Shown here piece by piece: positions 2,556 through 33,061 of a DNA stretch of 64,000 nucleotides. The DNA lies in the NCBI GenBank assembly GCA_023245155.1, contig JAHFKV010000001.1, positions 331,034-395,033 of the forward strand, read 5' to 3'. Position 1 is the first letter of the stretch. Each line of letters opens with the position of its first letter. The notes beneath the pieces are model-generated. The model searched no databases. It saw only the letters and a list, made by a program, of their open reading frames with translations, and was not told where the DNA came from. The stretch comes from Candidatus Staskawiczbacteria bacterium. Lineage in GTDB: Bacteria > Patescibacteriota > Minisyncoccia > Minisyncoccales > Staskawiczbacteraceae. The position numbers were made by a program, and so were the translations under genes.

Positions 2556-2560
2556 AGTCT

Positions 2561-3708: not shown

Positions 3709-3717
3709 TGAACTATT

Positions 3718-7158: not shown

Positions 7159-7166
7159 GCAACAAG

Positions 7167-7195
7167 AAAAAATCGCGCCTCTGGCGCGATTTTTT
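7167..7195 (+). terminator. Intrinsic terminator
   Basis: AAAAAATCGCGCC / TCT / GGCGCGATTTTTT hairpin with a T-run. Confidence 0.8.
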
Positions 7196-7216
7196 CTTGC
7201 AAGGTATAATGATGCA

Positions 7217-7441
7217 ATGAGTTATATCTTCTGGGCTTCCATTACGTTGTTTATTGTCACCCTGATCTATTACCTGGTTTGGCTGGGGTTAGTCTGGTAT
7301 TGGCACGAAAAAAAAACTTCTTTATTGATCATACCTCTTTTATACACGTTTGATTTTTTCATCATTGCCTTTTTAGTAATGTCATTAGTGGTGATTGTAC
7401 TTACCTATACCCCCGATATTATTCAACTCATTCAAAAATAA
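7217..7441 (+). CDS. Small 2-TM membrane protein
   Basis: Two hydrophobic helices. It directly precedes the membrane protein/ATPase pair. Confidence 0.5.
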   Translation: MSYIFWASITLFIVTLIYYLVWLGLVWYWHEKKTSLLIIPLLYTFDFFIIAFLVMSLVVIVLTYTPDIIQLIQK

Positions 7442-7442
7442 T

Positions 7443-8840
7443 GTGGCAATAAAAATATCACCATACTTTTTTTGGACGAAGGCATTCAATAAAGTTGCCC
7501 TGCGGCCTTTTTGGTGGGCATGGATTATGCTGGTGGTTTTTTATGTGCCCTTTTTGCGGGTGTGGTGGTGGTTGGTGGCACCTTTGCTTTTATCAATTGA
7601 ATTGAGAAAGCTTTACCTGTGGTGGATTAACTGGGATTATTATTACGCCAAAACCAAGTGGTATATATTAGAAATTATTCCGCCCAAAGAAGTCTTGGTG
7701 CCCCTGAAAGCCATGGAAGATGTGTTTTCCGTGCTTTGGGCGACGTTTTACACTTCGGCGAGTTGGCGCGAACAGTGGTGCGAGGGTGTGATTCAACCTA
7801 ACCCCGATTGGATGTCGTTTGAAATCGCCAGTATTGAAGGTCAGTTACATTTTTATGCACGGGTGATGGCAAGTCACCGCCACACCCTTGAATCTACGCT
7901 TTACAGTCATTACCCTGAACTGGAAGTCCGGGAAGCGGCTGATTACACTAAAAATGTGCCTCAAAACGTTCCGAATGAAGAGTGGGACACCTATGGTGAA
8001 GATTATAAGACGACCAAAGCTTCTTATTTGCCCATTAAAACGTACGAAAGTTTTTTTGAACCGCAGGGAGAAAAGATTGCCGCAGAAGAGAAGCGTATTG
8101 ACCCAATGGCTGCATTATTAGAATTAATGTCAAAATTGGGTCCAGGGGAACAGTATTGGATGCAGTTTATTTTTTTCCCGCTCATGTTAGATGCCGAGGA
8201 AGAATTCAATGAAAAGGGGAAAAAAGCCATTGCCAAGTTGGCGGGCCGTCCCGAAAAGAAACATAAATCGCTCTCACAAGAAATCTTAGATGTTTTTTGG
8301 AATTTAGTGTTAGGGCCCAAGAAAGAAGGTTCCGGTGAAAAAGCAACCTACAAATGGATTGATTCGGCAAAAACCGAGGAAAATGACCGCGAGCTTTTGC
8401 TTACCCCGGGCGAACGCTTAGTGCTCACGGCCGTGGAAAATAAGGTTAAGCAGCCCCAATTTTTCTGTAACATCAAAGGGGTGTATGTGGCCAAGAGGGA
8501 AAATTTTAATTCCGTCCACCGGGTGATTATCCGTTCCTATTTCCCCCACTTTGGAACCACCAACCTCAATGATTTTTTGTTCAGTAAAGTTACCCGGCCC
8601 AAAACCCAGTATGTGTTCCGTAAGCGGATACCTTTTTTACGCAGAAGGCGGATGTTCCGTAATGCCGTGCTGCGTTTTACTCCGTTGTTCCCTGAAAGAA
8701 CCCAGGAAATGGCCATTTTGGATCCGGAGGAAATGGCCACCATTTTCCACTTCCCAATTAAAGTGACCGGCTTAGTGCTTCCCACCATGGCCCGGGTGGA
8801 GAGCAAGAAATCTGGCCCACCGCCAAATTTACCCACATAA
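7443..8840 (+). CDS. Membrane protein partnered with the TraD/VirD4-like ATPase; function unknown
   Basis: N-terminal Trp-rich TM helices (FWWAWIMLVVFYVPFLRVWWWLVAPLLL) and a large soluble domain. The start is uncertain: GTG at 7443 or ATG at 7527. Confidence 0.55.
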   Translation: MAIKISPYFFWTKAFNKVALRPFWWAWIMLVVFYVPFLRVWWWLVAPLLLSIELRKLYLWWINWDYYYAKTKWYILEIIPPKEVLVPLKAMEDVFSVLWATFYTSASWREQWCEGVIQPNPDWMSFEIASIEGQLHFYARVMASHRHTLESTLYSHYPELEVREAADYTKNVPQNVPNEEWDTYGEDYKTTKASYLPIKTYESFFEPQGEKIAAEEKRIDPMAALLELMSKLGPGEQYWMQFIFFPLMLDAEEEFNEKGKKAIAKLAGRPEKKHKSLSQEILDVFWNLVLGPKKEGSGEKATYKWIDSAKTEENDRELLLTPGERLVLTAVENKVKQPQFFCNIKGVYVAKRENFNSVHRVIIRSYFPHFGTTNLNDFLFSKVTRPKTQYVFRKRIPFLRRRRMFRNAVLRFTPLFPERTQEMAILDPEEMATIFHFPIKVTGLVLPTMARVESKKSGPPPNLPT

Positions 8841-13854: not shown

Positions 13855-13856
13855 TT

Positions 13857-14262
13857 GGACAAGCAAGACTGTAAGCCGAATTCTGTTCCGCCAGCTGGCG
13901 GAAGTGATTATCTATCTGGACTAACCATTACTGATTAGTTCTGGCGAACTACTTTTAACAGATTTTTGAGATGAAACCCAAATTTCTGCTTTGTTCTTGC
14001 ACCCAATAAGGATTTAGCCGTTGCACCCCCATATTACTATGGGATTCCCCGATGAATATCGGGGCCGTAGCCTTTCGGCCTTGGCGTCACTGTTCGCACC
14101 TCGCACCTTACGGTGTATGGCCGTTAGCCATTATTTTTTTATCCCGCCCTTCATTATATTTCTATACGTATGGCGGGAGGGAGTTCGGACTTTCCTCCCC
14201 ATAACCATGTTAGGGGTTTACCCTGAGCGTAGTCGAAGGGCAATCACTCATCTTGCTTGTCC
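13857..14262 (-). ncRNA. rnpB: RNase P RNA (bacterial type A-like)
   Basis: The reverse complement starts GGACAAGCAAG and ends CUUGCUUGUCC (P1 pairing). It contains GGGGAGGAAAGUCCGAACUCC (CR-I) and ACAGAAUUCGGCUUACAG near the 3' end. Confidence 0.9.
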
Positions 14263-16107: not shown

Positions 16108-17919
16108 ATGTCCCAAGAACATATCCGAAATTTTTGTATTATTGCACACATTGACCACGGTAAATCCACATTGGCGGATAGGCTTTTGGAATTGACCAGC
16201 ACGGTGGCGGCTAAAAAAATGTCTGCGCAGTTTTTGGACAGCATGGAATTAGAAAAAGAGAAGGGGATTACGATTAAATTAAAGCCCGTCAGAATGGAAT
16301 ACGCGTTAGATGGCAAACAGTACATTTTGAATTTGGTGGATACACCGGGACACGTGGATTTTTCATATGAAGTTTCGCGCTCTTTGGCGGCGGTGGAGGG
16401 CGCAGTACTTTTGGTGGATGCCACGCAGGGGATTCAGGCGCAAACACTGGCCAACATTGAACTGGCTAAAAAGCAAAATTTGGTGATTATTCCGGTGGTT
16501 AACAAAATTGATATGCCTGCGGCCATGGTGGATGAATGCGTTCAAGAATTGGCCACGGTTTTGAATGTGGGCGCAGAGACTGTTTTAAAAATTTCCGCTA
16601 AAAACGGCACCAATGTAGAGGAAGTCTTAAAAACGATTATTGAAAAAGTGCCTTCACCTGAGATTCGTAATCCGGGAGCAGAAACAAAGCCATTCCGCGC
16701 ACTCATTTTTGATTCAACCTATGATTCTTTCAAAGGTGTGTTGGCACTGGTACGGGTAATGGAGGGCGAAATCCGCGACCGGGAAAAAATTGAATTATTG
16801 GCCACCAAAACTCAAGCAGAAGTAAAAGAATTGGGATATTTGCACCCGGGCATTGTGCCAAGTCAGACTATTTTATGCGGTGAAATTGGATATATTGCTA
16901 CGGGAATTAAAGAACCCGGAAAAGTTAGAGTTGGAGATACTATCGCGCGCGTATTGCCTGCAAATTCTCCAAAAAACGTCCCCCTGGGTGGATATCAAGA
17001 GCCCAACCCCATGGTATTTGCCAGTTTTTATCCGGAAGATCCGGAGGAATTTGACGTACTGAAGGTGGCACTGGGTAAATTAAAGTTACAGGATCCGGCG
17101 CTGGTGTACGAACCCGAAATGAAAGAGGCGTTGGGCCGCGGGTTCCGCTGCGGATTTTTGGGAACGCTGCACGTGGAAATTATTTCTGAAAGATTAGAAA
17201 GGGAATTTGGATTGACGCTAGTTATTTCCACCCCGTCGGTAATTTATAAAATTTTTGATAAAAAGGGGATTGAAAAAATAGTATATTCAGCTTCAGATTG
17301 GCCAGACCCCAGCGGTATTGAAAAAATGGAAGAGCCCTGGGTTTTGTTGGAAATTATTTCGCCGCAAAATTATTTGGGTAAATTAATGGAGGCCTTAAAA
17401 GACGTGGGTGGCAATTACTTGGAAACCAGCTATTTATCCGGTGAGCGGTCAATTATCAAATACGAAGCGCCCTTGCGCGCCATTGTGGCTAATTTGTATG
17501 ACAATATTAAAAGTATCAGCCAGGGGTATGCTTCGCTTTCCTACAAAACGCTGGGGTACCGGCCGGCGCAATTGGTAAAAATGGAAATTTGGATTGCCGG
17601 CAGACAGGAAGAGGCCTTTAGCCGCGTGGTAGCCGAGCGCGAAGCCTATGAACAGGGCAAAAAGATTGTAGAAAAATTAAAAGAAGCGTTGCCCATGCAG
17701 CAGTTTTCGGTAGCATTGCAGGCGGTCATTGGCGGAAAAATTATTGCCAGGGAAACCATTTCCGCCCGCCGCAAAGACGTAACGGGGTATTTGTATGGCG
17801 GCGACAAAAGCCGCAAAAAGAAGCTGTTGGAAAAACAAAAGAAAGGCAAAGCACTGATGAAGGATAAAGGCAAAGTCACTGTACCATCCAAGACGTTTTT
17901 GGAGATTTTTAGGGCGTAG
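16108..17919 (+). CDS. lepA: Translation elongation factor 4 (LepA)
   Basis: IRNFCIIAHIDHGKSTLADRLL, NLVDTPGHVDF, VNKIDMP, and the LepA C-terminal domain. Confidence 0.95.
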   Translation: MSQEHIRNFCIIAHIDHGKSTLADRLLELTSTVAAKKMSAQFLDSMELEKEKGITIKLKPVRMEYALDGKQYILNLVDTPGHVDFSYEVSRSLAAVEGAVLLVDATQGIQAQTLANIELAKKQNLVIIPVVNKIDMPAAMVDECVQELATVLNVGAETVLKISAKNGTNVEEVLKTIIEKVPSPEIRNPGAETKPFRALIFDSTYDSFKGVLALVRVMEGEIRDREKIELLATKTQAEVKELGYLHPGIVPSQTILCGEIGYIATGIKEPGKVRVGDTIARVLPANSPKNVPLGGYQEPNPMVFASFYPEDPEEFDVLKVALGKLKLQDPALVYEPEMKEALGRGFRCGFLGTLHVEIISERLEREFGLTLVISTPSVIYKIFDKKGIEKIVYSASDWPDPSGIEKMEEPWVLLEIISPQNYLGKLMEALKDVGGNYLETSYLSGERSIIKYEAPLRAIVANLYDNIKSISQGYASLSYKTLGYRPAQLVKMEIWIAGRQEEAFSRVVAEREAYEQGKKIVEKLKEALPMQQFSVALQAVIGGKIIARETISARRKDVTGYLYGGDKSRKKKLLEKQKKGKALMKDKGKVTVPSKTFLEIFRA

Positions 17920-17937
17920 TATTCTAAAGTTAAAAAT

Positions 17938-18657
17938 ATGAATACAATAGGAAAAAAAGAAAAATTAGAAATTTTGGAAAAGGCCAGACAATGGTGGAGA
18001 GAGGAGCTTGTTCCCGCACACAAGAGAAATTTACTCAAACTGAGTTCTTTAGATGAGTATGATATTAATCCTTTTCTCTGGTCATATTTGGCTTATTTTC
18101 TTGAGGGTAATGACACGCCAGAAACTCTTGCAAAAGTGCTTATTTATCCTAGGGTTTTGGGTACTTCTATTGTCACAACTTTTGGAAGTAGATCTCAGGA
18201 TTTCATATCAAGAGTGTTTGAAGGAGTTTTAGGCTCTGCTATTCCTGGTATTGACTTGGAATTTACTGATAAAATTGATGGGAGAAAGAAATATTGCCAA
18301 GTAAAAGCTGGTCCAAATATCGTTAACCATGACGGGGCAATTAGTATTAAAAATCACTTCAAGAGTGCAAGAATGATTGCGAAAACAAATCATTTACCTA
18401 TCGAAGTGGGTGATTTTATGCTTTGCCTGCTATATGGTGAATCTGGTCAAGAGAATGCATTTATAAAAAATATTGGTAAAGAATACTCTTTGGCGACTGG
18501 ACAGGAGTTTTGGCACAGATTTACTGGTGATCCAGATTTTTATTCCGATCTTATAAAAGTTATTGGTGAAGTAGCAGAAGAGTTTAATATGAAGAGAACT
18601 ATTAATAAAGTTATAAAAGAATTAGCAGAAAAAATTAAAGAAAAATACAGAAAATAG
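17938..18657 (+). CDS. Probable type II restriction endonuclease (recalls the Eco47II/Sau96I-type family)
   Basis: PD-(D/E)XK-like core GIDLEFTDKIDGRKKYCQVKAGPN. Immediately upstream of an m5C methyltransferase. AT-rich. Confidence 0.55.
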   Translation: MNTIGKKEKLEILEKARQWWREELVPAHKRNLLKLSSLDEYDINPFLWSYLAYFLEGNDTPETLAKVLIYPRVLGTSIVTTFGSRSQDFISRVFEGVLGSAIPGIDLEFTDKIDGRKKYCQVKAGPNIVNHDGAISIKNHFKSARMIAKTNHLPIEVGDFMLCLLYGESGQENAFIKNIGKEYSLATGQEFWHRFTGDPDFYSDLIKVIGEVAEEFNMKRTINKVIKELAEKIKEKYRK

Positions 18658-18693
18658 AATTAATTTCTTGAAAAGATATCCACATGGTAACCT

Positions 18694-18722
18694 TTGCATT
18701 ATGCATTGGTTACTTTTATAAT
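18694..18722 (+). promoter_or_regulatory. Putative promoter of the methyltransferase gene, overlapped by an inverted repeat
   Basis: TTGCAT (18694-99), 17 nt, TATAAT (18717-22). The imperfect inverted repeats GGTAACC...GGTTAC and TGCAT-T-ATGCA span the -35 box and spacer. Confidence 0.5.
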
Positions 18723-18751
18723 TAAGATGTAATTATTAATTTCATTACATC

Positions 18752-19984
18752 ATGCAAAACTTTTTAACCATCGCAGACGCTTCAGAAATGATTGGTGTTT
18801 CTCCAGATACCATAAGACGATGGGATAAAAAAGGTTTAATAAAATCGCAGCGCTCAGATTTGAATTACAGAGTTTTCAATGTTGAGGAAATTAGAAGGAT
18901 TCACGATAAGGTTTCGGGAAAACCAGAGGAAAATAATTATAAGATATTAAAATCTAACAAAAAAACAAATTATAAGGTAGTTGAATTATTCGCAGGTGCT
19001 GGTGGTACTGCTCTGGGTCTTGAAAATGCAGGATTGCAACATGTTTTTCTGAATGAATACGACAAGAATGCCGTAGAAACTCTTAAAAAAAATCGTCCAG
19101 ATTGGCAGGTGAATCCTGAGGATGTTAGAGATATAAGTTTTAAGGGTATGCAAGCTGATATTGTTGAGGGAGGATTTCCATGTCAAACATTTAGTTTCGC
19201 AGGAAAAAAGATGGGGTTTGGGGATATTAGGGGGACTATGTTTTTTGAATTCGCTCGTGCAGTTGATGAAATTAGGCCTAAAATTGCAATGGGAGAAAAT
19301 GTCCGCGGTCTTTTGCACCATGATGATGGTAAAACTTTGCAAACAATCGTCAAAGTGTTGCAGGATATGGGTTATAGGGTTGCGCATAAGATTTTACGTT
19401 CGCAATATCTTGATGTGCCACAAAAACGTGAAAGGCTTGTTATTCTTGCAATCAGAGATGATCTTACTGCTCCTTTATTATTTCCAAAGGAACAGGATTA
19501 TACAATTTCAATGCGCAATGCACTAGCGAACTGTCCGTCATCTATCGGCCAACAGTATCCACGTAAAAAACGCGAAATAATGGAAATGATACCGGCGGGG
19601 GGATATTGGAAGGATCTGCCTGAAAATTTACAGAAAGATTATATGGGGGCGAGCTATGGAATGGCCGGCGGTAAGACTGGAATGGCTCGTAGGCTTTCTT
19701 GGGATGAGCCAAGTTTAACTCTAACCTGTGCGCCTGCTCAAAAGCAGACTGAGCGATGCCACCCTGAAGAGACACGTCCTTTAACTGTGCGCGAATATGC
19801 TCGAATACAGACATTTCCTGACAATTGGGAGTTTGCTGGTTCTGCAAATGCTCAATATAAGCAGATAGGTAATGCAGTACCAATAAATCTTGGCTATCAT
19901 ATGGGAAAATGCTTGATAGCTATGCTTGGTAATAAGCCTGACTTGGCGACAATGGACGTTGTTGATCCTATAAAATTGATTTAA
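18752..19984 (+). CDS. DNA (cytosine-5)-methyltransferase with an N-terminal MerR-like HTH
   Basis: HTH LTIADASEMIGVSPDTIRRWDKKGLI. Motif I ELFAGAGG, motif IV GGFPCQTFS, motif VI ENVRGL, motif X QIGNAVP. Confidence 0.9.
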   Translation: MQNFLTIADASEMIGVSPDTIRRWDKKGLIKSQRSDLNYRVFNVEEIRRIHDKVSGKPEENNYKILKSNKKTNYKVVELFAGAGGTALGLENAGLQHVFLNEYDKNAVETLKKNRPDWQVNPEDVRDISFKGMQADIVEGGFPCQTFSFAGKKMGFGDIRGTMFFEFARAVDEIRPKIAMGENVRGLLHHDDGKTLQTIVKVLQDMGYRVAHKILRSQYLDVPQKRERLVILAIRDDLTAPLLFPKEQDYTISMRNALANCPSSIGQQYPRKKREIMEMIPAGGYWKDLPENLQKDYMGASYGMAGGKTGMARRLSWDEPSLTLTCAPAQKQTERCHPEETRPLTVREYARIQTFPDNWEFAGSANAQYKQIGNAVPINLGYHMGKCLIAMLGNKPDLATMDVVDPIKLI

Positions 19985-20035
19985 TATTTCGAAGGTGGGA
20001 TAAAACGTTTTTGGATGTATTGAGCACGTAATTTT

Positions 20036-21196
20036 ATGGTAACAGTTAACATTAAAAAACAAACCAATAGCAGCATAACAAAGAATCTATCTTTTGATTT
20101 AGACGATTATACTATTTTCGCAGGAGAGAATAATAGCGGAAAATCAAATCTCATAAGAGCTATAAAAGCAACCCAAGATTCTAATGGCCTAAAGGATTAC
20201 AAAATCATCTATATTTCGGCTGAGAACACGCAACCACAGAAGGAAGAATTGAAATCTTCAGCGTCTAGTACAGAATTCTACAAACTTCTAGAAGATATCT
20301 TGCAGCCTATTTTCGATAAAAAACTGATAAATAGTCTTATTAAAAAATTTGATAAGGCAAGAGAAAGGAAAAAGTTTGTTAAAACTGTTAACAAATTTTT
20401 AAAAGATTTCGGTGTTAGTGATAAAAGCTTTGACGTAAAAATAGAAGGACAAAAGTTCAGTGAAGATCTTATCGTTAAGATTGTTAAGGCTTTCGTAAAT
20501 GATCTTTATAATAGTTTAATCACAGAAGTTGATTTGAATAATATTGGCATGGGTACTCAAAGATTAATTGTTATGGCTCTTATTAAATATTATCAGGAGA
20601 AAAAAATTGAGGCAGATGAAAAGGTATTAATAATTTTTGAAGAGCCGGAAATATATTTGCATCCAAAGTATAAGGAAAGTCTATATCGGTGTTTAGTTAA
20701 ACTTTCTAAAAGAAAGAATACGATGGTTCTAATAACTACTCATGACCCATACTTTATAGAGCTGGGAGAAAAACAAAAAATTTATAAAATATACCGAAGC
20801 GATGTCCTCACCGACCAACATGCAACTGACATAATAGTTGTCGATAGTGGGAAAACTTTACCGTATAAATCATATTCAGAGATTAATTACAAGATATTTG
20901 GTTTGGCAAGTGAAGCCTATTTCTTAGAGCTTTATGAATATGCAAAGAGAAAAGTTGCAAAGTTTATGGGGAAGAAAGAACTCGATTTTGCGTACCATGA
21001 ATTTGACTTGCTTATGTTTTATCCATATTTAGATGGCCTTGGATTACAACAAAATTATAAGGACGATCGAGGTAATGATGTAACCCCTCTTACCATTTTG
21101 AGGCACATTTTGGCACATGGCAAGAGAAAAAAATACCCTATTGCAAAAAACGAAGCAGTAAAATATCTTGTTGGTTTTGTAGGTTTTATAAACTAA
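20036..21196 (+). CDS. ABC/OLD-type (AAA_15/21-like) ATPase with an uncharacterised C-terminal domain
   Basis: Walker A GENNSGKS, signature-like GMGTQRL, Walker B LIIFEEPEIYLHP, H-loop ITTHD. I do not recognise the roughly 130-aa C-terminus. Confidence 0.65.
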   Translation: MVTVNIKKQTNSSITKNLSFDLDDYTIFAGENNSGKSNLIRAIKATQDSNGLKDYKIIYISAENTQPQKEELKSSASSTEFYKLLEDILQPIFDKKLINSLIKKFDKARERKKFVKTVNKFLKDFGVSDKSFDVKIEGQKFSEDLIVKIVKAFVNDLYNSLITEVDLNNIGMGTQRLIVMALIKYYQEKKIEADEKVLIIFEEPEIYLHPKYKESLYRCLVKLSKRKNTMVLITTHDPYFIELGEKQKIYKIYRSDVLTDQHATDIIVVDSGKTLPYKSYSEINYKIFGLASEAYFLELYEYAKRKVAKFMGKKELDFAYHEFDLLMFYPYLDGLGLQQNYKDDRGNDVTPLTILRHILAHGKRKKYPIAKNEAVKYLVGFVGFIN

Positions 21197-21213
21197 AAAT
21201 TTTAAAGAATAGC

Positions 21214-21285
21214 ATGGAAGGATACGACCTAATTGTAATCGGTGGTGGGGCATCGGGGATGATGGCGTTGGGAAGGTTGCGTTAA
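21214..21285 (+). pseudogene. 23-codon stump of a HI0933-like/FAD-dependent oxidoreductase
   Basis: Translates to MEGYDLIVIGGGASGMMALGRLR*, which is a dinucleotide-binding GxGxxG N-terminus followed by a premature stop. Confidence 0.6.
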
Positions 21286-21289
21286 GAAA

Positions 21290-21847
21290 ATGACCACGAG
21301 AAAAATATTTTTGATAATTATTGGATTACTGGCAGTGCAGGCGGGAGTGCTTTGGCTGTTTGGCCAGCCGGCTATTTGCACCTGCGGGTACGTGAAGGTC
21401 TGGGAGGGAGTGGTGCTTAGCAGCGGCAATTCGCAGCATTTGACTGATTGGTATACGTTTTCACATATTATTCATGGGTTTTTATTTTATTTGTTATTGT
21501 GGCTGGTGTTCCCCAAAATGCCATTTTGGAAAAGGTTGCTGATTACCGCGGGCATTGAAATCGCCTGGGAGCTGATTGAAAACACGCCCATGGTTATTGA
21601 TCACTACCGCCAGCAGGCCTTGGCCCAGGGATACACGGGTGACAGTATTATTAATTCGGTTTTTGACACGCTGGCCATGATTGGCGGGTTTGTGCTGGCA
21701 AGAAAATGGCCTGTTTGGAGCATTGTTGTCATTGGGGTGGGGCTGGAATTGTTTACCGGGTTCATGATCCGCGACGGCCTGGCGCTAAATGTGTTAAACT
21801 TAATTCATGTCTTTCCGGCGGTTTCGCGCTGGCAGGCGGGAGGGTAG
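21290..21847 (+). CDS. DUF2585/UPF0314-like membrane protein
   Basis: GQPAICTCGYVKVWEG...SQHLTDWYTFSHIIHGF and 4-5 TM helices. Confidence 0.5.
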   Translation: MTTRKIFLIIIGLLAVQAGVLWLFGQPAICTCGYVKVWEGVVLSSGNSQHLTDWYTFSHIIHGFLFYLLLWLVFPKMPFWKRLLITAGIEIAWELIENTPMVIDHYRQQALAQGYTGDSIINSVFDTLAMIGGFVLARKWPVWSIVVIGVGLELFTGFMIRDGLALNVLNLIHVFPAVSRWQAGG

Positions 21848-24499: not shown

Positions 24500-25345
24500 A
24501 TGGTACAACAAGATAAATACAGTGCAGTGTGGGTGAGCCATAGCTCGATTAATGATTTCTTAAAATGTCCGCGGGCTTATTTTTTACATAATGTTTACAA
24601 AAATGAGCGGAACAAGAAAATTAATATCGTAAACCCGCATTTGTCGTTGGGCATTGCCGTGCACGAAACGCTGGAAGGTTTATTGGCTTACGGGGCAGGG
24701 GACCGGTTTAAAAAACCGTTACTGCAAACATTTGAAGAAAATTGGGCCAAAATTTCAGGTAAAGTCGGCGGGTTTAAAAACGCGCAAGAAGAAATGGAAG
24801 TTAAGGCGCGCGCTAAAAAAATGATAGAGCGGGTAACGGAAAATCCCGGGCCCTTGGAAAAACTGGCGGTTAAATTGGCGGCGCATGCCAATGATATGCC
24901 CCCGAATTTTTATTTGTCAGAAAAAGATAACATCATTTTAAGCGGCAAAATTGACTGGTTAGAATATGTGCCCGAAGACGATTCAGTGCGGGTGATTGAT
25001 TTTAAAACCGGCAAGAACGATGAAGATAAAGATTCGCTGCAGCTGCCGATTTACGCCTTATTGTTGAATGCTTTGCAGAAACGCAAGGTTTCTGGAGCGG
25101 CATATTGGTACATTGACCGGAATAATGAACCAACCGAAGTGCCATTGCCGGATTTATTAACCTCAAAAAACCGGGTGCTGGAAGTGGCGCTAAAAATAAA
25201 AGAAGCCCGGGAAAAACAAGCATTTGCCTGCCCTCATGGAGAAAAGGGATGTTTTGCCTGCAAACCATTTGAAAAAATTCTGAGAGGGGAGGCAGAATTA
25301 GTGAAGGTGGATGAAGCCAGAAAAACGGAGTTGTATATGGTGTAA
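24500..25345 (+). CDS. PD-(D/E)XK nuclease, Cas4/RecB-like, with putative Fe-S cysteines
   Basis: N-terminal CPRAYF, core GKIDW...VIDFKTGK, QLPIYALLL, C-terminal CPHGEKGCFAC. Confidence 0.7.
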   Translation: MVQQDKYSAVWVSHSSINDFLKCPRAYFLHNVYKNERNKKINIVNPHLSLGIAVHETLEGLLAYGAGDRFKKPLLQTFEENWAKISGKVGGFKNAQEEMEVKARAKKMIERVTENPGPLEKLAVKLAAHANDMPPNFYLSEKDNIILSGKIDWLEYVPEDDSVRVIDFKTGKNDEDKDSLQLPIYALLLNALQKRKVSGAAYWYIDRNNEPTEVPLPDLLTSKNRVLEVALKIKEAREKQAFACPHGEKGCFACKPFEKILRGEAELVKVDEARKTELYMV

Positions 25346-25348
25346 ATA

Positions 25349-26605
25349 ATGAATCAAGAGCAAGCGCTGGAAATTTTAAAACGGGGGCACAATGTTTTTT
25401 TGACCGGTTCGCCAGGAGCGGGGAAGACTTTTTTGTTGAATAAATTTATTGACTATTTGCGGGGAACAGAAAAAGTGGTGGCTGTTACAGCCTCAACGGG
25501 TATTGCCGCCACGCATATGAACGGGGTAACGCTGCATTCGTGGAGCGGCCTGGGGATTAAAGAACATGTTACAGACCAGGAAATCCGGGCATTGATAAAA
25601 CGTAAATATCTTTTCAAGCGCATTCGTAAAACCAATGTGTTGATTATTGACGAAGTTTCCATGCTCAAACCCTCCCAGTTTGACGCGGTGGATAAAATTT
25701 GCCAGTATTTCAAAGCCAGTTTTCTGCCGTTTGGGGGCATGCAGGTGGTGTTGTCGGGGGACTTTTTTCAGTTGCCGCCCATTGAAAAGTCTGGCCAAGT
25801 GCATTTTATTACCGAATCTGCCGCCTGGAAACGTCTGGATGTAAAAGTCTGTTATTTGCAAGAACAGTTCCGTCACAATGACAAAAAGTTAGCTCTGTTG
25901 CTGCAATCCATCCGGGAAAATAATATTGAAACATCAAAGGCGCTTCTGGCGGCCGGGTCCGCGGTTTTGGGCGCCGCGGCGCCCAAAACGGCCACCAAAC
26001 TTTACACCCACAATGTGGATGTAGATGCCATTAATGCAGATGAGTTAGAAAAAATACCAGAAGAAGAAATCAAATATGAAATGCAATCATATGGCAAGCA
26101 AGAAGTGGCTGATGTTTTAAAAAAGAGCTGCCTGGCACCCGAACTTTTGGTTTTGAAAAAGGGGGCGCAAGTTATGTTTATAAAAAATAATTTTGATGAA
26201 GGCTATGTTAATGGTACTCAGGGTAAGGTAATTGACTTTGATGCAATGGGCAATCCGATTATTGAAACGCTTTCGGGGGCGAAAGTATCCGCTTCAAAAG
26301 TTTCCTGGAGAATAGAAGAGGAAGGCAAGGTACTGGCGGAAATCACGCAATTGCCGCTGCGCCTGGCCTGGGCAATTACGGTGCATAAAAGCCAGGGCAT
26401 GAATTTAGATGCTGCACAGATTGATTTATCGAAGTGTTTTATTAAAGGCATGGGATATGTAGCGCTCAGCAGATTGCGTTCGTTTGAGGGACTGCACGTG
26501 GTGGGAATCAACGATATGGCCTTTTGTGTTAATGAAGAAGCAGTTGACCTAGATAGCCAATTGCAGCAGGGTTCGGCTCAAACCTTAAAGCTCTTGGGGG
26601 CCTAG
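25349..26605 (+). CDS. Pif1/RecD-family SF1 DNA helicase
   Basis: Walker A GSPGAGKT, LIIDEVSML, GDFFQLPPI, ITVHKSQG. Confidence 0.85.
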   Translation: MNQEQALEILKRGHNVFLTGSPGAGKTFLLNKFIDYLRGTEKVVAVTASTGIAATHMNGVTLHSWSGLGIKEHVTDQEIRALIKRKYLFKRIRKTNVLIIDEVSMLKPSQFDAVDKICQYFKASFLPFGGMQVVLSGDFFQLPPIEKSGQVHFITESAAWKRLDVKVCYLQEQFRHNDKKLALLLQSIRENNIETSKALLAAGSAVLGAAAPKTATKLYTHNVDVDAINADELEKIPEEEIKYEMQSYGKQEVADVLKKSCLAPELLVLKKGAQVMFIKNNFDEGYVNGTQGKVIDFDAMGNPIIETLSGAKVSASKVSWRIEEEGKVLAEITQLPLRLAWAITVHKSQGMNLDAAQIDLSKCFIKGMGYVALSRLRSFEGLHVVGINDMAFCVNEEAVDLDSQLQQGSAQTLKLLGA

Positions 26606-27003: not shown

Positions 27004-27128
27004 TTTTTTTTATGGTAAAAATACGGCATGCGTAAAGTGCATCATCGCGCCCTGGAGGAATAGTACCTCGGCGGTCTCATAAGCCGCAGGTCCCCGTGCA
27101 ATTCGGGGGGGCGCAACAAATTTTGCGC

Positions 27129-27202
27129 GCCGGGGTAGCTCAGTTGGCAAGAGCGCCACACTCATAACGTGGAGGTCGAGAGTTCGAATCTCTCCCTCGG
27201 CA
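27129..27202 (+). tRNA. tRNA with CAT anticodon (elongator Met, or Ile2 if lysidinylated)
   Basis: Hand-folded cloverleaf: acceptor GCCGGGG/CCTCGGC, D arm GCTC..GAGC, anticodon loop CTCATAA, T arm GAGAG-TTCGAAT-CTCTC. It lacks the initiator hallmarks (3 GC pairs in the anticodon stem, 1:72 mismatch). Confidence 0.85.
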
Positions 27203-27220
27203 CCGGCAGTAATAACACAT

Positions 27221-27295
27221 GCGGGCATGGTGTAGCCTGGTTAACACGCCTCCCTGTCACGGAGGAGACCGGGGGTTCAAATCCCCCTGCTCGCG
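27221..27295 (+). tRNA. tRNA-Asp (GTC)
   Basis: Acceptor GCGGGCA/TGCTCGC, anticodon arm CCTCC-CTGTCAC-GGAGG, T arm GGGGG-TTCAAAT-CCCCC. Confidence 0.9.
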
Positions 27296-27676
27296 CTACT
27301 CGACACGAATCGAAGCTAAAGCTTAGATTTTGTGTTTATTTTGGGTCTTTTTTGTCAGTTCCAACCTTTTATATCTGGCTTCCAGTACAGGATAGTCTTT
27401 TTGAATAGGAATAAACCACTTATTCGGATGAAGATATTCCTTTGGCAGAAGCCATAGGTGCAATTTCAATTAACCTTAATGATTTAGTAGTCCTAAATCC
27501 AATTCTTCTTCCATCATTAGTAATAGTAAGGGATCCACATGAAAATATTATAAAGCAATTATTGGAATGGGAAAAAGTGCCGGATGGTTATTTTGTAACT
27601 AAAGTAAATTAAGATACCAATATTTAATGTAATAGCCAGTAGAAGTCGCTTTTAAAAAAGGCAATTTTTTGATAGA

Positions 27677-28087
27677 GTGATACAAATGGATATCTTTGAA
27701 GAAGTAAAAAAACTCAATCTGCCGCTGGGTAAATATGTGGTAGTCGGAAGCGGAATCATGGCCGCCAAAAGAATGCGTAATATTAACGACATTGACCTTT
27801 TAGTTACCGAAGATGTTTATGAAATAATAAGCAAACAAGAGGGTTGGACTTCGGAACCTAAATCAGACGGATGGACATTAACAAAGGGTATTTATGAAAT
27901 TGATAAAGTGTTTAAATATAAAGAGTATAATCCTGGAACCGATCATCTTATTAAGACTGCTGAAATAATAAATGGAATTCCATTTATGCAATTATCGGAG
28001 CTAGTTAAATTCAAAGAAATATTGAGGAGAGAAAAAGATTTGGAAGATATTGAGTTAATTAAAAAGTATTTAGAAAATGGAGAGTAA
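27677..28087 (+). CDS. Minimal Pol-beta-superfamily nucleotidyltransferase
   Basis: VGSGIMAAKRMRNINDIDLLV matches the G[SG]-x(9-13)-DxD pattern. Start is the GTG at 27677 or the ATG at 27686. AT-rich. Confidence 0.55.
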   Translation: MIQMDIFEEVKKLNLPLGKYVVVGSGIMAAKRMRNINDIDLLVTEDVYEIISKQEGWTSEPKSDGWTLTKGIYEIDKVFKYKEYNPGTDHLIKTAEIINGIPFMQLSELVKFKEILRREKDLEDIELIKKYLENGE

Positions 28088-29366
28088 GGATATTATAATT
28101 ATTGGTGCAGGTATAGCTGGTATTACGCTTGCCATCCGACTTAAAAGAATGGGTATTGACCCAATGGTTTTTGAAGAACACGAAGAATCTGAATTAATTG
28201 ACGGGTATGATAAAAAATCGGTAAATATTACAATTTCTCATCGAGGCATTCAAGCCCTCAAACAGATAGATTGCGCCAAAGAGCTGATAGAAAAATCTAT
28301 GGATATCACCGGAAGAACACATTTTATCGGGGAAGAATCTTATTTCACGCCATACACATCAAAACCAAACTTTTGCCTTTATTCTATTGAAAGGAAAGAT
28401 CTTACAAAAATTCTAATCCAAAGAGCGAAAAAAGAAGGTGTAAAAATACAATTTGGGTTTAAGCTCACAAAAGCAAGATTTGATAAAAAGATTTGCTTCT
28501 TTCTCAATAAGAGAAAAGTTTACGAACATCCTTATGACTTTTTGTTCGGAGTCGATGGAGTGCATTCAAATATCAGAAATTGGCTTCGTATTCCGCATTC
28601 CATAACTCAAAGAGATGTTATCTATAAAAAAATTGACATTGACCCTGCTAATGCAGCCAGATTAAAACTAAATAGTCATTCTGTTAATATTTGGCCTAAT
28701 CCAAAGGGATTATTTTTTACTCTGCCTAATAAAGACGGCAGCCAGTCGGGTCTTATAAATATAAGCAGTAAAATTTTAGATGACATCGAAAGTGATAGCA
28801 ATCTGTTAAATAAATATTTTCCAATCCTTGAAACCGTAGTAGATAATTTTTCTGAAAAGTTTCACACAACTCCACCAGGTTCTTTTAAGGAAGTAGAGTG
28901 TGACGGCTGGTTTGCCAGAAGCAGTGTTCTTTTAATGGGAGATGCTGTCCATGCGATGATGCCTTTTTATGCCCAAGGTGCTAATTGTGCCCTGGAAGAC
29001 GTTTCTATATTTTGTGAGACGCTGAAGAAAAATAATTATGATTTATGGAAAACTTCTTTGGAGTTCCAAAAAGTCAGACCGCCTGTTACAAAAGCCATAA
29101 TTAAACTATCGCGCGGAAATTTAAAAAATCTTAAAGCAGATAAAGACATTGATGAACATCTTAACATTAAAAATATTGAGCTAGGCCTTGAACGGAAATT
29201 CCCAGATTACTTTTCGGAATACTCAATGGTTTCATTTACCGATATTCCATATGATAAGGTTCTTAATATTTTCGAGAAGCGCCAGCCAATTCTAAAAGAA
29301 TATTCAAAGAAGGTAATAGGTGAAGTATCAGATAATTTATTAAGTGAAATATATACAAAATTATAA
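28077..29366 (+). CDS. FAD-dependent aromatic-ring monooxygenase (kynurenine 3-monooxygenase/UbiH-like)
   Basis: IIIIGAGIAGITLAIRL...FEE (GxGxxG) and MGDAVHAMMPFYAQGANCALEDV. Confidence 0.8.
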   Translation: MESKDIIIIGAGIAGITLAIRLKRMGIDPMVFEEHEESELIDGYDKKSVNITISHRGIQALKQIDCAKELIEKSMDITGRTHFIGEESYFTPYTSKPNFCLYSIERKDLTKILIQRAKKEGVKIQFGFKLTKARFDKKICFFLNKRKVYEHPYDFLFGVDGVHSNIRNWLRIPHSITQRDVIYKKIDIDPANAARLKLNSHSVNIWPNPKGLFFTLPNKDGSQSGLINISSKILDDIESDSNLLNKYFPILETVVDNFSEKFHTTPPGSFKEVECDGWFARSSVLLMGDAVHAMMPFYAQGANCALEDVSIFCETLKKNNYDLWKTSLEFQKVRPPVTKAIIKLSRGNLKNLKADKDIDEHLNIKNIELGLERKFPDYFSEYSMVSFTDIPYDKVLNIFEKRQPILKEYSKKVIGEVSDNLLSEIYTKL

Positions 29367-29386
29367 TTACTATTAAACATACAAAC

Positions 29387-30010
29387 ATGGCAAATAATAT
29401 TGAAGTAGAATATCGGGGAACTTTAACCAAAGAGAAGTTTAAAGCATTAAGTGAATTACTGAAGGAAAAAGGAAAGTTTATCAAAGAGAAAGATAGATTC
29501 TCGGTTATTTATTTTCCCAGAGGAAAAGAACGGCTGAAGGTGAGCAAAAGCCCTTTAGATTTAAGAGTGAGAGTTACTAATAAAAAATCCGAGTTAGTTT
29601 TAAAGTATGGAAAAAATAGCGGTAATGACGCAAGGCAAGAATTTTCATTTCCAGTAGATTCTGAACAATTTGGAGAAATGACTGACTTTTTAAAGATATT
29701 AGGATTCTATTATGGCGTACTTCAAGCAACTAAAACCTATGTGTACGAATACAAAGATATTGAATTTGCATTAGTGGACGTTCCTGGCTGGGGCCATTAT
29801 TTTGAAGCCGAAATCATGGCGGAATCTGGTTCAATTAAAGCTGCGGATCAAAAGATTATGGCGACACTTGATGAGCTTGAACTAAAAGTATTGAATGAAA
29901 AGGAATTTTATAAGCTTCTGGATGACTTGAGTAATAGGCCTGGGTTTAGATTTAACTTTAAAAAAGAAAATTTCTCTGATCTTAAAAAGAGATTCGCTGA
30001 CTATTTTTAA
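29387..30010 (+). CDS. CYTH (triphosphate tunnel metalloenzyme, CyaB-like) domain protein
   Basis: N-terminal IEVEYRG (an ExExK-type motif with K replaced by R), LRVRV, LKYGK, YFEAEI. Confidence 0.6.
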   Translation: MANNIEVEYRGTLTKEKFKALSELLKEKGKFIKEKDRFSVIYFPRGKERLKVSKSPLDLRVRVTNKKSELVLKYGKNSGNDARQEFSFPVDSEQFGEMTDFLKILGFYYGVLQATKTYVYEYKDIEFALVDVPGWGHYFEAEIMAESGSIKAADQKIMATLDELELKVLNEKEFYKLLDDLSNRPGFRFNFKKENFSDLKKRFADYF

Positions 30011-30014
30011 AAAG

Positions 30015-30686
30015 ATGAATAATTCAAATGAAATTGGCTCATCGCTTCCAGAAAAAGAAGAAAGTCCTAAACAAGAAAAAATAAGAGAGATAATGAAAAG
30101 AAGCAAACAATTTATTGTCATTTGCGGACCTAGTGGCAGTGGAAAAACGATGGCAATAAAGCATCTTGTTGATAAGTATGGTTTTATTGAGCCACCTTTT
30201 TTAACCACCAGAAAGCTAAGGCCAGGAGAAAAAGAAATTGGCGGAGCTGTTTTAGATGAAGAAGATTTTTCCAAAAAAGAAACGAGCGGAGAAATTTTCC
30301 TACCTGCTCGAAATTATGGGAATGCCTACGGATATGATTTGGACGTGATATTTAATAGTGCGATAGAAGGCAATAATATTGTGGTTGAAGCACCTTCGGT
30401 CAATTTAACCACGGATGTAGCCCACTTCTTACCCGAAAGTACGGTAATCGGAATGCTTCCCCTGAACACTAAAGAAATAGAAGCTCAATTAACCGAGCGT
30501 GGATTAAATAGTGATAGCGATAGAAAAGCTCGATTATCATCTGTTGAAACAGAGAAAGAAAACATTTTGCGCGCATCCGAAACTATGAGTATTTCTCAAA
30601 TAACTCCTACGCATGGAGTTCCTGAAGATACCCTTACTCAAATTGATACCTTAATGGAACAAAAAAGATTTAAAGCAAAAGAATAA
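30015..30686 (+). CDS. Guanylate-kinase-like P-loop kinase
   Basis: Walker A CGPSGSGKT. FLTTRKLRPGEKE resembles the Gmk TTRxxRxGE motif. Confidence 0.65.
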   Translation: MNNSNEIGSSLPEKEESPKQEKIREIMKRSKQFIVICGPSGSGKTMAIKHLVDKYGFIEPPFLTTRKLRPGEKEIGGAVLDEEDFSKKETSGEIFLPARNYGNAYGYDLDVIFNSAIEGNNIVVEAPSVNLTTDVAHFLPESTVIGMLPLNTKEIEAQLTERGLNSDSDRKARLSSVETEKENILRASETMSISQITPTHGVPEDTLTQIDTLMEQKRFKAKE

Positions 30687-30692
30687 TATATT

Positions 30693-31952
30693 ATGAAAAA
30701 AGTTATAAAGTTTTTTCAAACTTACTTTTCTTTATCTTCATATGCCGGCTACGATACAAGGCTAAGGAATGGTTTAGTGTTCGGCCGTCCATGGTCGCCT
30801 TTACGGTTTAGTGGGCGATTTTTTCCTTTTTGGTTTGGAAAATATAACTACAATAATATACTTCTTCATGCAAAGAATATTTCTAACGAAAAAGATATAG
30901 AAATATCTGATAATGGAACATTCAATTTTACCAGGTATCTTGAAAAGAAATTATTATTTAAAATTGTCCAAATGCTTAAATTGCCGTTTAAGCCGTTTTC
31001 AGGATATATTACAAGCGGGGCGACGGAAGCAAATATGTATGCTATGTGGATTGCGAGAGAATGGGCAAAGTCTAAGAAATTAAAGGATTCTAAGGTTTAT
31101 TGGATTATTCCAGATAACGCGCATTATTCAATTGAAAAATCATTAGAGTTGATGGATGTGCGCAGAAATCCTGATAATGAAATAATCCAAATAGAAACGA
31201 ACGCGCTGGGTGACGCAAAATATGAGAAAATCGTAGAATTTATCAAAGAACATAGTAGTAGTCCGATTATTCTACCTCTTACAGTAATGACTACTGAATG
31301 CGGAGCTATCGACCCGGTAAAACAAATAAATGATTTTATTATTCAATCAAAGTTAGATAATATCTTTTTCCATGTTGATGCAGCTTTCTCGGGATTCATT
31401 CTTCCTTTTTTAAATGAGTACAGTAGTATTTTTTCATTAGATTCATTAACCTCAATTAGTGTTGATTTTAGTAAAACAATAGGGGGTAACGTAGGTTCTG
31501 GCGCAGTTATTTTCCGGGCAGGGTTGGAGGAGTATGTTAAGATTCACGCTTCATATTTATCTACTAACGCCGACCAGACTTTAACAGGAAGTAGAAAAGG
31601 TTCGGATGTTATTGCAATGTATAGCATATTATCTGTTAATAGCGACTTTGATATTAAAAAAGACATCTTAAATGCGTTTAAAAAAACTAGATTTTTGGTG
31701 AAAGAAATTTCTAAACTTAATTCTATAAAATTATTTTATGGGCCAAAATTAAACTACATTGTCTTTTCGTTGAATATTGAAAGTGGCACAAAAGGAGAAA
31801 AATTGCGAAAGATTTTGAAATCTTATGCCATAAGTTCTTCAATGGTTAAGATAGAGCATAAAGAGCAGGAGTTATTTAAAATAATATTAAGGAGCGACCA
31901 TAGTTATAAAAATATAAAAAAGCTGATTAATAGCCTCAAAACAGTTTCTTAA
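30693..31952 (+). CDS. Group II PLP-dependent decarboxylase (MfnA/GadB-like)
   Basis: TSGATEANMYAMWIAREW, FHVDAAFSGFILPF, and the Lys-bearing motif SVDFSKTIGG (the usual form is DxHK). Confidence 0.7.
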   Translation: MKKVIKFFQTYFSLSSYAGYDTRLRNGLVFGRPWSPLRFSGRFFPFWFGKYNYNNILLHAKNISNEKDIEISDNGTFNFTRYLEKKLLFKIVQMLKLPFKPFSGYITSGATEANMYAMWIAREWAKSKKLKDSKVYWIIPDNAHYSIEKSLELMDVRRNPDNEIIQIETNALGDAKYEKIVEFIKEHSSSPIILPLTVMTTECGAIDPVKQINDFIIQSKLDNIFFHVDAAFSGFILPFLNEYSSIFSLDSLTSISVDFSKTIGGNVGSGAVIFRAGLEEYVKIHASYLSTNADQTLTGSRKGSDVIAMYSILSVNSDFDIKKDILNAFKKTRFLVKEISKLNSIKLFYGPKLNYIVFSLNIESGTKGEKLRKILKSYAISSSMVKIEHKEQELFKIILRSDHSYKNIKKLINSLKTVS

Positions 31953-31954
31953 AT

Positions 31955-33061
31955 ATGAGTGTAAAGGATTATAAAATTGGCCACCTAACGAATCCTTTAA
32001 AAGCAAAGATCAAAAAAGCTTCCCTGAAAGGGAAAGGCTGTAAGATTATCGTACCTGCTCGGATTAATACGTTTCTTTGCCATCACAACTATTTTGCGCA
32101 TCCTCCAAAACCACAGATCTATCCAGTGGATTCTATTAACTTTGCTATCAGTAAGTTTACGGAGGCTACAGTAACAATAAGGAATGATAGAAAAATTATC
32201 ATTAAGGCTTCCGATAAACATTTAGCAATCATTGAGCATACCGTAAAAATAATGCAAAAGACTTTGGATATAGAAACCGGATTTAACATAACTGCTAGAA
32301 ATTTACACAAAATATCTCATGGTGGATTGGCTTCGTCTTCTGCTATTATGTCAGCCGTAGCGCAAGCCATTAACGTATTAATGGGGAATGTTTTATCTGT
32401 TGAGGATACAACAAAGCTAATTTCCCAGAATTATGGCGAGGAGTCATCAAAGAGAGGTTTTATATCGAGTGCTGCCAGTATCGGCGGATCTACGGCAATA
32501 GGATTATCTAGTAAATCTTTGGCTATTATCGGGGGAGAATCTGAAATATGGTTACTAAATAATTTACCAAAAGAATATTCTGCAGTGCTTTTATATCCAA
32601 AAAAGATAAAAACTATTAGCAAGGCTTTAGATGACGTGCTTAATAAAAAAGAATTTTCTTTATTAGAAACCATAGATGATGGGTGGGGAAGTATCAAAGA
32701 AAACATACTGAAAACAAAAATCATTCCAGCCATCAATAAAAAAGATTACTCAGCTTTATTCAGGACAATTAATATGTATACTATTGGTGCTTATGGAGAT
32801 ATTCCGGGATATTTTAATTCCCGATGGAATTCTTATGGAATATCTTTTAACTCGTTGATATATATTATCTTCTCTAAAATTTTCAGCTCACTTAAAATTA
32901 ATGAACATTGCTTCTTTGTTTCTTCAAATGGTCCGCTTATTGCAGTAATAACCAAAAATCCCAAAAAAGTTGTAGATTTATTTAAAGAATTTGAAAAATC
33001 TTTCTCTATTGAAAGAGTATCATTGTCTGCAAAAACTAGTATCACTCTTTCAAAGAATTAG
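31955..33061 (+). CDS. GHMP-kinase-superfamily protein (beta-RFAP-synthase-like)
   Basis: IIVPARINTFL at the N-terminus. GHMP motif-II-like HGGLASSSAIMSAVAQAI. Confidence 0.5.
   Translation: MSVKDYKIGHLTNPLKAKIKKASLKGKGCKIIVPARINTFLCHHNYFAHPPKPQIYPVDSINFAISKFTEATVTIRNDRKIIIKASDKHLAIIEHTVKIMQKTLDIETGFNITARNLHKISHGGLASSSAIMSAVAQAINVLMGNVLSVEDTTKLISQNYGEESSKRGFISSAASIGGSTAIGLSSKSLAIIGGESEIWLLNNLPKEYSAVLLYPKKIKTISKALDDVLNKKEFSLLETIDDGWGSIKENILKTKIIPAINKKDYSALFRTINMYTIGAYGDIPGYFNSRWNSYGISFNSLIYIIFSKIFSSLKINEHCFFVSSNGPLIAVITKNPKKVVDLFKEFEKSFSIERVSLSAKTSITLSKN

Follow-up and report, generated by a model that had tools for sequence, protein, structure and literature searches.

The segment studied here (positions 17938–21285) belongs to a 64,000-nt stretch of a Candidatus Staskawiczbacteria genome (contig JAHFKV010000001.1), hereafter the window, to whose positions all coordinates refer unless another locus is named. 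Three AT-rich open reading frames (ORFs), all on the plus strand, lie between lepA and a DUF2585 gene (Table 1), an arrangement that an initial annotation made from the DNA letters had described and with which both the ORF list and the GC profile agree. They encode an EcoO109I-family endonuclease, a C5-cytosine DNA methyltransferase and a protein that joins an ATP-binding cassette (ABC) ATPase to a C-terminal HEPN-like domain. GC content is 0.28–0.37 across most of 17.8–21.2 kb compared with 0.43–0.49 in the flanks, rising within the segment to 0.40–0.45 over the methylase gene's 3′ half. The DUF2585 gene has host-like GC content, is joined to the stump of a flavoprotein gene and constitutes the right flank, outside the island. 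An assembly artefact is excluded because the same proteins occur in the same order on six assembled contigs from several samples. LepA homologues put the host among Patescibacteria resembling Candidatus Staskawiczbacteria. The families recovered with Pfam and PADLOC, a restriction–modification (R-M) pair and an OLD-like ABC ATPase, support the defence-type character initially proposed for the island, but the three genes cannot be treated as one unit, as the ATPase gene is set apart from the R-M cassette by what remains of a lepA 3′ end. We suggest that the segment is probably a two-module defence islet, built in two steps in a variable slot 3′ of lepA, in which an R-M module is accompanied by a latent ABC-HEPN ribonuclease (RNase) acting as a second line.

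Table 1 Features of the segment, with genes of related loci referred to in the text (positions in loci other than the window are those of the locus).
Locus	Feature	Position	Strand	Basis or remark
Window	lepA	16108–17919	+	Left flank of AT-rich segment
Window	lepA 3′ end (…KTFLEIFRA, stop) plus 4 nt	17890–17923	+	Left copy of 34-nt imperfect direct repeat
Window	239-aa ORF, EcoO109I-family type II endonuclease gene	17938–18657	+	Pfam PF14511; start 18 nt past lepA stop
Window	27-nt near-perfect palindrome	18687–18713		Overlaps −35 hexamer and spacer of promoter-like site
Window	410-aa ORF, C5-cytosine DNA methyltransferase gene	18752–19984	+	PF00145, TIGR00675, MerR helix-turn-helix
Window	lepA 3′-end relic (KTFLDVLST, stop)	20002–20035	+	Right repeat copy, abuts ATPase ATG
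Window	386-aa ORF, ABC ATPase and C-terminal HEPN-like domain	20036–21196	+	Pfam, PADLOC, homologue alignment
Window	ABC ATPase domain, residues 1–261	20036–20818	+	AAA_15/AAA_21, PADLOC, PDB, Foldseek
Window	Walker A GENNSGKS	20123–20143	+	Translation
Window	Walker B/D-loop IIFEEPE	20639–20650	+	Translation
Window	C-terminal HEPN-like domain, residues 262–386	20819–21196	+	Invariant motif, relatives' Pfam matches, AlphaFold model
Window	Rx4H motif R356..H361	21101–21118	+	Invariant in 30 homologues
Window	Flavoprotein stump, ATG..TAA, 23 codons, MEGYDLIVIGGGASGMMALGRLR	21214–21285	+	HI0933-like FAD oxidoreductase N-terminus
Window	DUF2585 gene	21290–21847	+	Pfam 1.9e-68, NCBIfam PRK00944 1.1e-75
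L011–L013	EcoO109I-like endonuclease and MerR-Dcm methylase			
L030	EcoO109I-like endonuclease and N4/N6 methylase			Endonuclease precedes ATPase homologue
L031	Type III mod-res			
L015	EcoRI-type methylase and GmrSD-HNH			
L001	M-S fusion			
L010	Dcm, N6 and Eco57I giant protein			
L019, L021	m5C methylases with Vsr			
L026	m5C methylase alone			
L025, L049	N6_N4 methylases			
L006	DUF2779 gene	2248–3741		
L011	DUF2779 gene	2509–4002		
L014	DUF2779 gene	7159–8637		
L022	DUF2779 gene	7125–8618		
L034	DUF2779 gene	7133–8611		
L098	~490-aa AAA family ATPase gene	3191–4666		Weissella hellenica plasmid CP042402.1
L099	~490-aa AAA family ATPase gene	3485–4957		Lactobacillus helveticus pLH1

The N-terminal part of the 386-aa protein is an intact ABC ATPase of the OLD/AriA/GajA type, with matches to Pfam AAA_15 (3e-23) and AAA_21 (2.3e-19), to the PADLOC models Old (1.3e-29), AriA (4.4e-26) and GajA (1.5e-17) and, among PDB sequences, to OLD (6p74, 2.4e-8). 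Foldseek comparison of the full-length model with the PDB retrieved GajA, retron Eco8, OLD and PtuA, with only the ATPase part being matched. A signature-like GMGTQR and an H-loop TTHD accompany the Walker motifs, in agreement with the OLD-like ABC-type ATPase initially described on the basis of these motifs. A database search yielded ~400 homologues, mostly of 370–390 aa and aligning end to end, and an alignment of 30 homologues (31–57% identical) has as invariant positions G30, N32, G35 and K36 of Walker A, E202–E205 of the Walker B/D-loop, and T235, H236 and D237 of the H-loop. Identification as a housekeeping ABC transporter was rejected, since transporter models matched only at E ≥1e-5 and on the Walker B region alone. 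Neither Pfam nor PADLOC detected a Toprim domain in the protein (OLD and GajA matches end by residue ~260–297) and no AriB Toprim, GajB helicase or PtuB HNH gene adjoins it, the neighbours being the methylase gene, the flavoprotein stump and the DUF2585 gene; the lack of a Toprim, an HNH or a partner gene noted in the initial annotation is thus upheld. Searches across the window for DUF2779, DUF2130 or a second copy of the ATPase found none.

The last ~110 residues of the protein very probably form a HEPN domain, which by analogy would be a metal-independent RNase effector. Both R356 and H361 of the Rx4H motif, which reads L-R-H-x-I-A-H, are invariant in the 30 homologues, as are E282, N284, S292 and Y295, with E298 nearly so. 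Of the 35 C-terminal-domain hits (ORFs) in the loci surveyed, 33 contain the pattern L-R-[H/N]-x-[IL]-[AG]-H, and the residue after the motif arginine is usually H or N. When C-terminal domains were searched in isolation, 12 of 23 matched PF18735 HEPN_RiboL-PSP, with the best scores being 28.4 bits for P0060 (equal to the gathering score), 27.6 for P0011 and 25.6 for P0021, always across the motif-bearing half of the profile, and the others lying at 19–26 bits. A further family, PF18737 HEPN_MAE_28990, was matched below threshold by 5 of the 23 domains, while single domains matched Las1 and Swt1 and no non-HEPN family recurred; PHROGs contained no match for the window protein's domain. The AlphaFold model of residues 262–386 (pLDDT 92, pTM 0.84) places helices at residues 280–288, at 293–310 (including E298), after an insert at 351–361 (with R356..H361 at its end) and, beyond a loop, at 371–385. 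By the canonical HEPN layout and the polar residue after the arginine described by Anantharaman et al. 2013 (PMC3710099), the topology of this predicted, rather than solved, structure is canonical. The initial annotation had regarded the domain as unrecognised and the gene as an orphan ATPase without a nuclease domain; the invariant motif, the relatives' Pfam matches and the confidently predicted fold argue instead for a HEPN-like domain and a predicted RNase fused at the C-terminus. Such an ABC-HEPN fusion would therefore be a self-contained protein with its nuclease built in.

The first module is, to judge from its sequence, a conventional type II R-M pair, as was originally proposed. Profile comparison, one of the checks suggested with the initial annotation, placed the 239-aa protein in the restriction-endonuclease family RE_EcoO109I (PF14511; 7e-30, 104.7 bits against a cutoff of 22.5, profile positions 4–198 of 198) and the 410-aa protein among C5 methylases (PF00145 DNA_methylase, 9.4e-81, 272 bits; TIGR00675, 3.6e-75, 253.6 bits against a cutoff of 100.65; PADLOC MTase_II, 1.9e-118). 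The translation of the latter contains FAGAGG, GFPCQ, ENV, QKRER and GNAVP as motifs I, IV, VI, VIII and X, in keeping with the 5-methylcytosine (m5C) methyltransferase with canonical motifs of the initial annotation. A PADLOC scan, likewise suggested, recovered Old, AriA, GajA and MTase_II across the island and left the endonuclease and the C-terminal HEPN-like domain without a family. For the endonuclease, NCBIfam gave a single chance-level match (E 0.065) and PHROGs none. Within its motif region (GIDLEF…CQVKAGPN), three relatives all conserve K123 and GPN, but the position two before K123 is Q or G and not the D/E of PD-(D/E)XK.

The EcoO109I R-M system recognises RG^GNCCY and relies on m5C methylation. 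The window pair has in common with it an endonuclease matching the full RE_EcoO109I profile and a cognate C5 methyltransferase, and differs in that the window contains no separate C protein, a MerR-type helix-turn-helix (HTH) being fused to the methylase instead. This HTH (residues ~6–51, 2.8e-12), absent from the initial annotation, forms the N-terminus of the methylase and probably autoregulates the R-M pair. The methylase gene starts 94 nt 3′ of the endonuclease gene, and the strongest candidate promoter of the region (TTTGCA-18-TATAAT, 18693–18722) falls in this spacer, overlapped by a near-perfect palindrome (GTAACCTTTGCAT-T-ATGCATTGGTTAC) that is a plausible candidate operator for the methylase's own HTH. 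The R-M intergenic region of a related locus, L012 (1863–1952 of that locus), has only a short CC(T)TTGCAT element in common with window positions 18658–18751 and contains its own perfect 10-nt inverted repeat (AATACCCCTT…AAGGGGTATT), although the HTH regions of the two methylases are nearly identical. An operator common to both spacers was rejected, the loose CC(T)TTGCAT likeness being unconvincing.

Recognition-site frequencies suggest that the site of the R-M pair probably contains GGNCC. With 113 occurrences in the window where 213 were expected (ratio 0.53, z −7.7), GGNCC shows the strongest depletion among 125 short palindromes. The longer RGGNCCY is reduced further (17 observed against 51 expected, 0.33), and no deficit is seen for CCNGG, YCCNGGR and GGCC, which served as composition-matched controls. 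This pattern is consistent with an EcoO109I-like or GGNCC specificity without proving it. Depletion in the window extends to TCGA (57 observed against 146 expected, 0.39), CTAG (0.50) and GATC (0.61), which hints at pressure from other restriction systems in the lineage.

The slot 3′ of lepA records more than one event. The sequence abutting the ATPase start codon is a copy of the last 30 nt of lepA and the next 4 nt, with 25 of 34 positions identical; it is the only match of ≥22/34 on either strand of the window, and none of 2,000 shuffles of the island reached 25/34. LepA C-termini in the clade all end in …KTFLE[IV]F[RK][SAT]. Because this relic adjoins the ATPase ATG, the ATPase gene must once have stood directly after a lepA gene; the 2.1-kb R-M cassette, bracketed by two lepA tails, came in separately. 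A donor for the relic was sought among 92 loci, in none of which does a lepA or DUF2585 gene lie beside an ATPase homologue.

The stump at the right edge was correctly attributed in the initial annotation to the N-terminus of a HI0933-like flavin adenine dinucleotide (FAD) oxidoreductase, matching residues 5–22 of the intact protein of relatives at 16 of 18 positions. Comparison of the lepA-downstream locus, as had been suggested, located the intact gene: relatives with LepA 85–89% identical carry a HI0933-like gene of 420–421 aa 3′ of lepA. DNA identity between the stump and these genes is high over 21223–21276, beyond which homology ends, and the 17-nt leader of the stump loosely resembles the relatives' leader (a run of ~12 nt). 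The break is thus at about 21276, on the 3′ side, at the junction with the DUF2585 region. The start codon of the stump is intact and has the island on its 5′ side, so insertion of the island does not explain the stump, contrary to the idea that its arrival broke the flavoprotein gene; the flavoprotein deletion is an event separate from the insertion of the AT-rich genes, in a recombination hotspot. The rest of the flavoprotein gene and homologues of the GNAT and HD genes were sought in the window and only the stump matched. The possibility that the stump is a duplicate of the FAD_binding_3 gene at 28077–29366 was rejected, as tblastn gave no match there and the N-termini differ (MESKDIIIIGAGIAG…).

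In two of these relatives (L093 and L094) the slot reads lepA-GNAT-HI0933-like (421 aa)-HD-DUF2914-PDDEXK-PIF1, and in another (L095) lepA is followed by four small ORFs and then the HI0933-like gene (420 aa). Foreign DNA recurs in the region downstream of lepA, which is a recombination hotspot, and the R-M pair and the gene stump, ordinary in themselves, are mainly useful as markers of it. In a further Staskawiczbacteria genome among these relatives (L096/L097, 9888–17812), lepA is followed by a gene for a 244-aa MerR-HTH protein, DUF3024, small ORFs and, after these, PIF1; genes for a large serine recombinase and a Prim-Pol protein lie close by.

The family is rare: exhaustive searching with a profile of the C-terminal domain gave only 362 clusters (50% identity) among 1.84 billion representatives. 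The domain-partner scan drew on the 150 hits listed by this search; all eight of the Pfam-scanned hits >280 aa carry an AAA_15/21 ATPase N-terminal to the HEPN-like domain, and shorter hits gave no Pfam match. Genome hits are overwhelmingly from Patescibacteria (including Saccharibacteria, Paceibacterota, Minisyncoccia, Nomurabacteria and Staskawiczbacteria). Genomic context was counted over 28 distinct family loci, with an R-M gene considered nearby when within two genes of the ABC-HEPN gene, as it is in 11 loci with R-M genes of at least five kinds (Table 1). Often the gene stands alone as an AT-rich insert flanked by housekeeping genes; secDF, ftsEX, terC and the ATP synthase operon are examples of what precedes it. 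In L012 the endonuclease, methylase and ATPase are 34, 70 and 52% identical, respectively, to those of the window, in a different gene order.

Some loci contain additional genes. A DUF2779 gene (~495 aa, with a Cas4-like PD-(D/E)XK region) lies directly 3′ of the ABC-HEPN gene in 5 of the 28 loci, overlapping it by 4 bp in L006 and L022, and a DUF2130 gene (~505 aa) lies 5′ of it in three (L001, L014 and L034); these loci may represent a two- or three-gene variant of the ABC-HEPN system. Serine recombinase genes lie close to the ABC-HEPN gene in L014 and L023. Proteins of ~490 aa annotated as 'AAA family ATPase' adjoin recombinase or integrase genes on Lactobacillales plasmids (L098 and L099), and their alignment with the window protein extends into its C-terminal domain. 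They received no score from the family profile; by eye, AEISYFAYNIP…IRNLAHH and GEVTYKAFGVP…VRNEIDHP can be read as their SEINY-like and Rx4H motifs.

The closest parallels in architecture are the anticodon nucleases RloC and PrrC, which carry an ABC nucleoside triphosphatase (NTPase) at the N-terminus and, at the C-terminus, a HEPN RNase with a catalytic Rx4-6H motif, and which often occur beside R-M systems (PMC3710099). The window protein has in common with them the N-terminal ABC NTPase and a predicted C-terminal HEPN domain, a single-polypeptide layout of sensor and effector, and a length of ~390 aa that matches PrrC. It differs in that its ATPase is of the OLD/AriA AAA_15/AAA_21 type and not the Rad50/SbcC-like AAA_13 type, a family that the window protein does not match at E ≤0.1 and that is not among the 25 families most often matched by family members; in that the HEPN domain of its family is closest to RiboL-PSP and MAE_28990 and not to the PrrC/RloC nuclease domain; and in that the family is largely confined to Patescibacteria. 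PADLOC includes PrrC models. PrrC sits inside a type Ic R-M system that silences it; the window gene instead adjoins a type II m5C pair, which came from a separate acquisition. The window protein is not a member of the PrrC/RloC family, and it would be RloC/PrrC-like in its working.

With OLD, AriA, GajA and the PtuA of Septu and retron systems the protein has in common the ABC ATPase subfamily, by sequence (Old, AriA and GajA) and by fold. Its HEPN domain holds the C-terminal position of the OLD Toprim, no AriB, GajB or PtuB partner gene of PARIS, Gabija or Septu lies beside it, and its ATPase insert is much shorter (386 aa in total compared with 520–600 aa). Independent fusions of an ABC ATPase to a C-terminal HEPN domain in mobile defence contexts were described for APECO1_4465 and ERFG_01251 (Anantharaman et al. 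2013, PMC3710099); these were compared by description only, and the HEPN domain of ERFG_01251 is of the classical MNT-associated type while that of the window family is of the RiboL-PSP/MAE_28990 type. Lactococcal Abi systems were considered as a known home of the family and rejected, as a 2026 review lists no ABC and HEPN fusion. ABC-HEPN fusions as a class have been known since 2013; the Patescibacteria family with an OLD-type ATPase and a RiboL-PSP-like HEPN domain appears uncharacterised. If the interpretation is true, the family would represent a minimal (~375 aa) one-protein sensor and RNase defence, with HEPN in place of Toprim on an OLD/PARIS/Gabija ATPase, concentrated in small Patescibacteria genomes whose immune repertoire is poorly known and with an effector domain outside PADLOC models.

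Active sites of HEPN RNases form across dimers, and ABC ATPases dimerise on ATP binding. In the proposed mechanism the ATPase would act as sensor and switch that keeps the HEPN RNase latent, by analogy with RloC and PrrC (PMC3710099). An infection cue would change the nucleotide state or dimerisation of the ATPase, bringing two HEPN domains together into a composite active site, and the resulting cut of cellular and/or phage RNA, possibly tRNA, would stop translation (abortive infection or dormancy). RNA cleavage would in this way be a second line behind restriction, a layered defence that, if true, is testable outside the E. coli PrrC paradigm. The proposal is built on computed domain content, conserved catalytic residues, genomic associations and island history, with RNase activity, trigger, target and coupling to the R-M pair as its inferred elements. 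We consider this combination of an R-M module and a latent ABC-HEPN RNase to be the best explanation overall and a moderately probable one.

Several results weigh against this explanation. The C-terminal domain of the window protein itself has no Pfam HEPN match, so the HEPN assignment was made via the family, in which relatives match at or below threshold. Foldseek comparison of the C-terminal model with the PDB and BFVD gave best E values of 1.3 and 0.84, with no significant match to a solved or a viral structure, the C-terminal profile found nothing meaningful among PDB sequences, and no PADLOC model covers the domain, the one match (PDC-M04B) being at chance level. For the endonuclease, the EcoO109I crystal-structure sequence was not reached in the PDB by either phmmer or a profile of three sequences; the protein is therefore distant from crystallised EcoO109I, and an EcoO109I-like specificity would be putative. 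The GGNCC depletion could also stem from other systems or from codon effects. Finally, more than half of the 28 family loci are without a nearby R-M gene, so that any functional coupling between the ATPase and the R-M pair would be putative.

In one alternative, the ABC-HEPN protein could be a guard in the manner of PrrC, bound and silenced by the neighbouring R-M proteins and firing when a phage anti-restriction protein disables them. Its architecture (ABC and HEPN, ~390 aa) matches PrrC, a protein encoded within an R-M locus (PMC3710099); in L011–L013 a 52%-identical homologue is likewise flanked, in a different gene order, by genes for an EcoO109I-family endonuclease and a MerR-Dcm methylase with 70% identity, an EcoO109I-like endonuclease precedes the homologue in L030 too, and R-M genes are nearby in the 11 loci counted above. 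At least five unrelated kinds of R-M partner (type II, IIG, III, M-S fusion and type IV) argue, however, against a single specific interface between proteins, R-M neighbours are missing from most loci, the lepA-tail relic shows that cassette and ATPase gene reached the window separately, the ATPase is not of the PrrC/RloC AAA_13 type and the HEPN domain matches no PADLOC model, so that we regard such a guard as unlikely here. Its extension to the whole family, as a general restriction guard of Patescibacteria in which a PrrC-like backup RNase accompanies many kinds of R-M system (II, IIG and III), senses restriction failure or anti-restriction proteins and in some lineages works with the DUF2779 Cas4-like nuclease, is similarly doubtful.

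Two further readings dispense with a fused anti-phage RNase. The initial annotation took the gene for an orphan ATPase; on this reading its C-terminus would be a regulatory or binding module and its effector would act in trans or have been lost, and the failure of the window's own domain to match Pfam, PADLOC, PHROGs, the PDB or Foldseek targets would fit this, as would the DUF2779 partner nuclease that follows in relatives' loci and is missing from the window. The invariant R and H of Rx4H, HEPN models as the sole recurrent matches, the canonical predicted topology and the fact that most family members are solo genes point the other way and make this reading improbable. Least probable of all is an addiction or selfish module in which a latent RNase mainly stabilises the islet through post-segregational killing or element competition. 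Toxins often consist of HEPN domains (PMC3710099), the AT-rich gene turns up in various housekeeping surroundings, as a mobile cassette would, and recombinase genes lie nearby in L014 and L023 and beside the distant 490-aa relatives on Lactobacillales plasmids; against this, the gene has no partner resembling an antitoxin, its fused ATPase points to control by a signal and the R-M and defence-gene surroundings are typical of defence islands.

Elsewhere in the window, a cluster of tRNA-Met, tRNA-Met and tRNA-Asp genes (27046–27296) immediately precedes a second AT-rich block (27500–33000, GC 0.29–0.38 compared with ~0.43–0.48), which encodes a 136-aa protein, a 429-aa FAD_binding_3 monooxygenase-like protein and CYTH, P-loop and PLP decarboxylase-like proteins and looks like another island acquired at a tRNA site. 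A full-length bacterial RNase P RNA of class A (13856–14259, minus strand, Rfam 110.6 bits) lies 5′ of murJ. The PDDEXK_1/Cas4-like protein (281 aa) and PIF1-family helicase (418 aa) encoded at 24500–26605 are kept as a pair in L093 and L094, and are backbone genes rather than part of the island.

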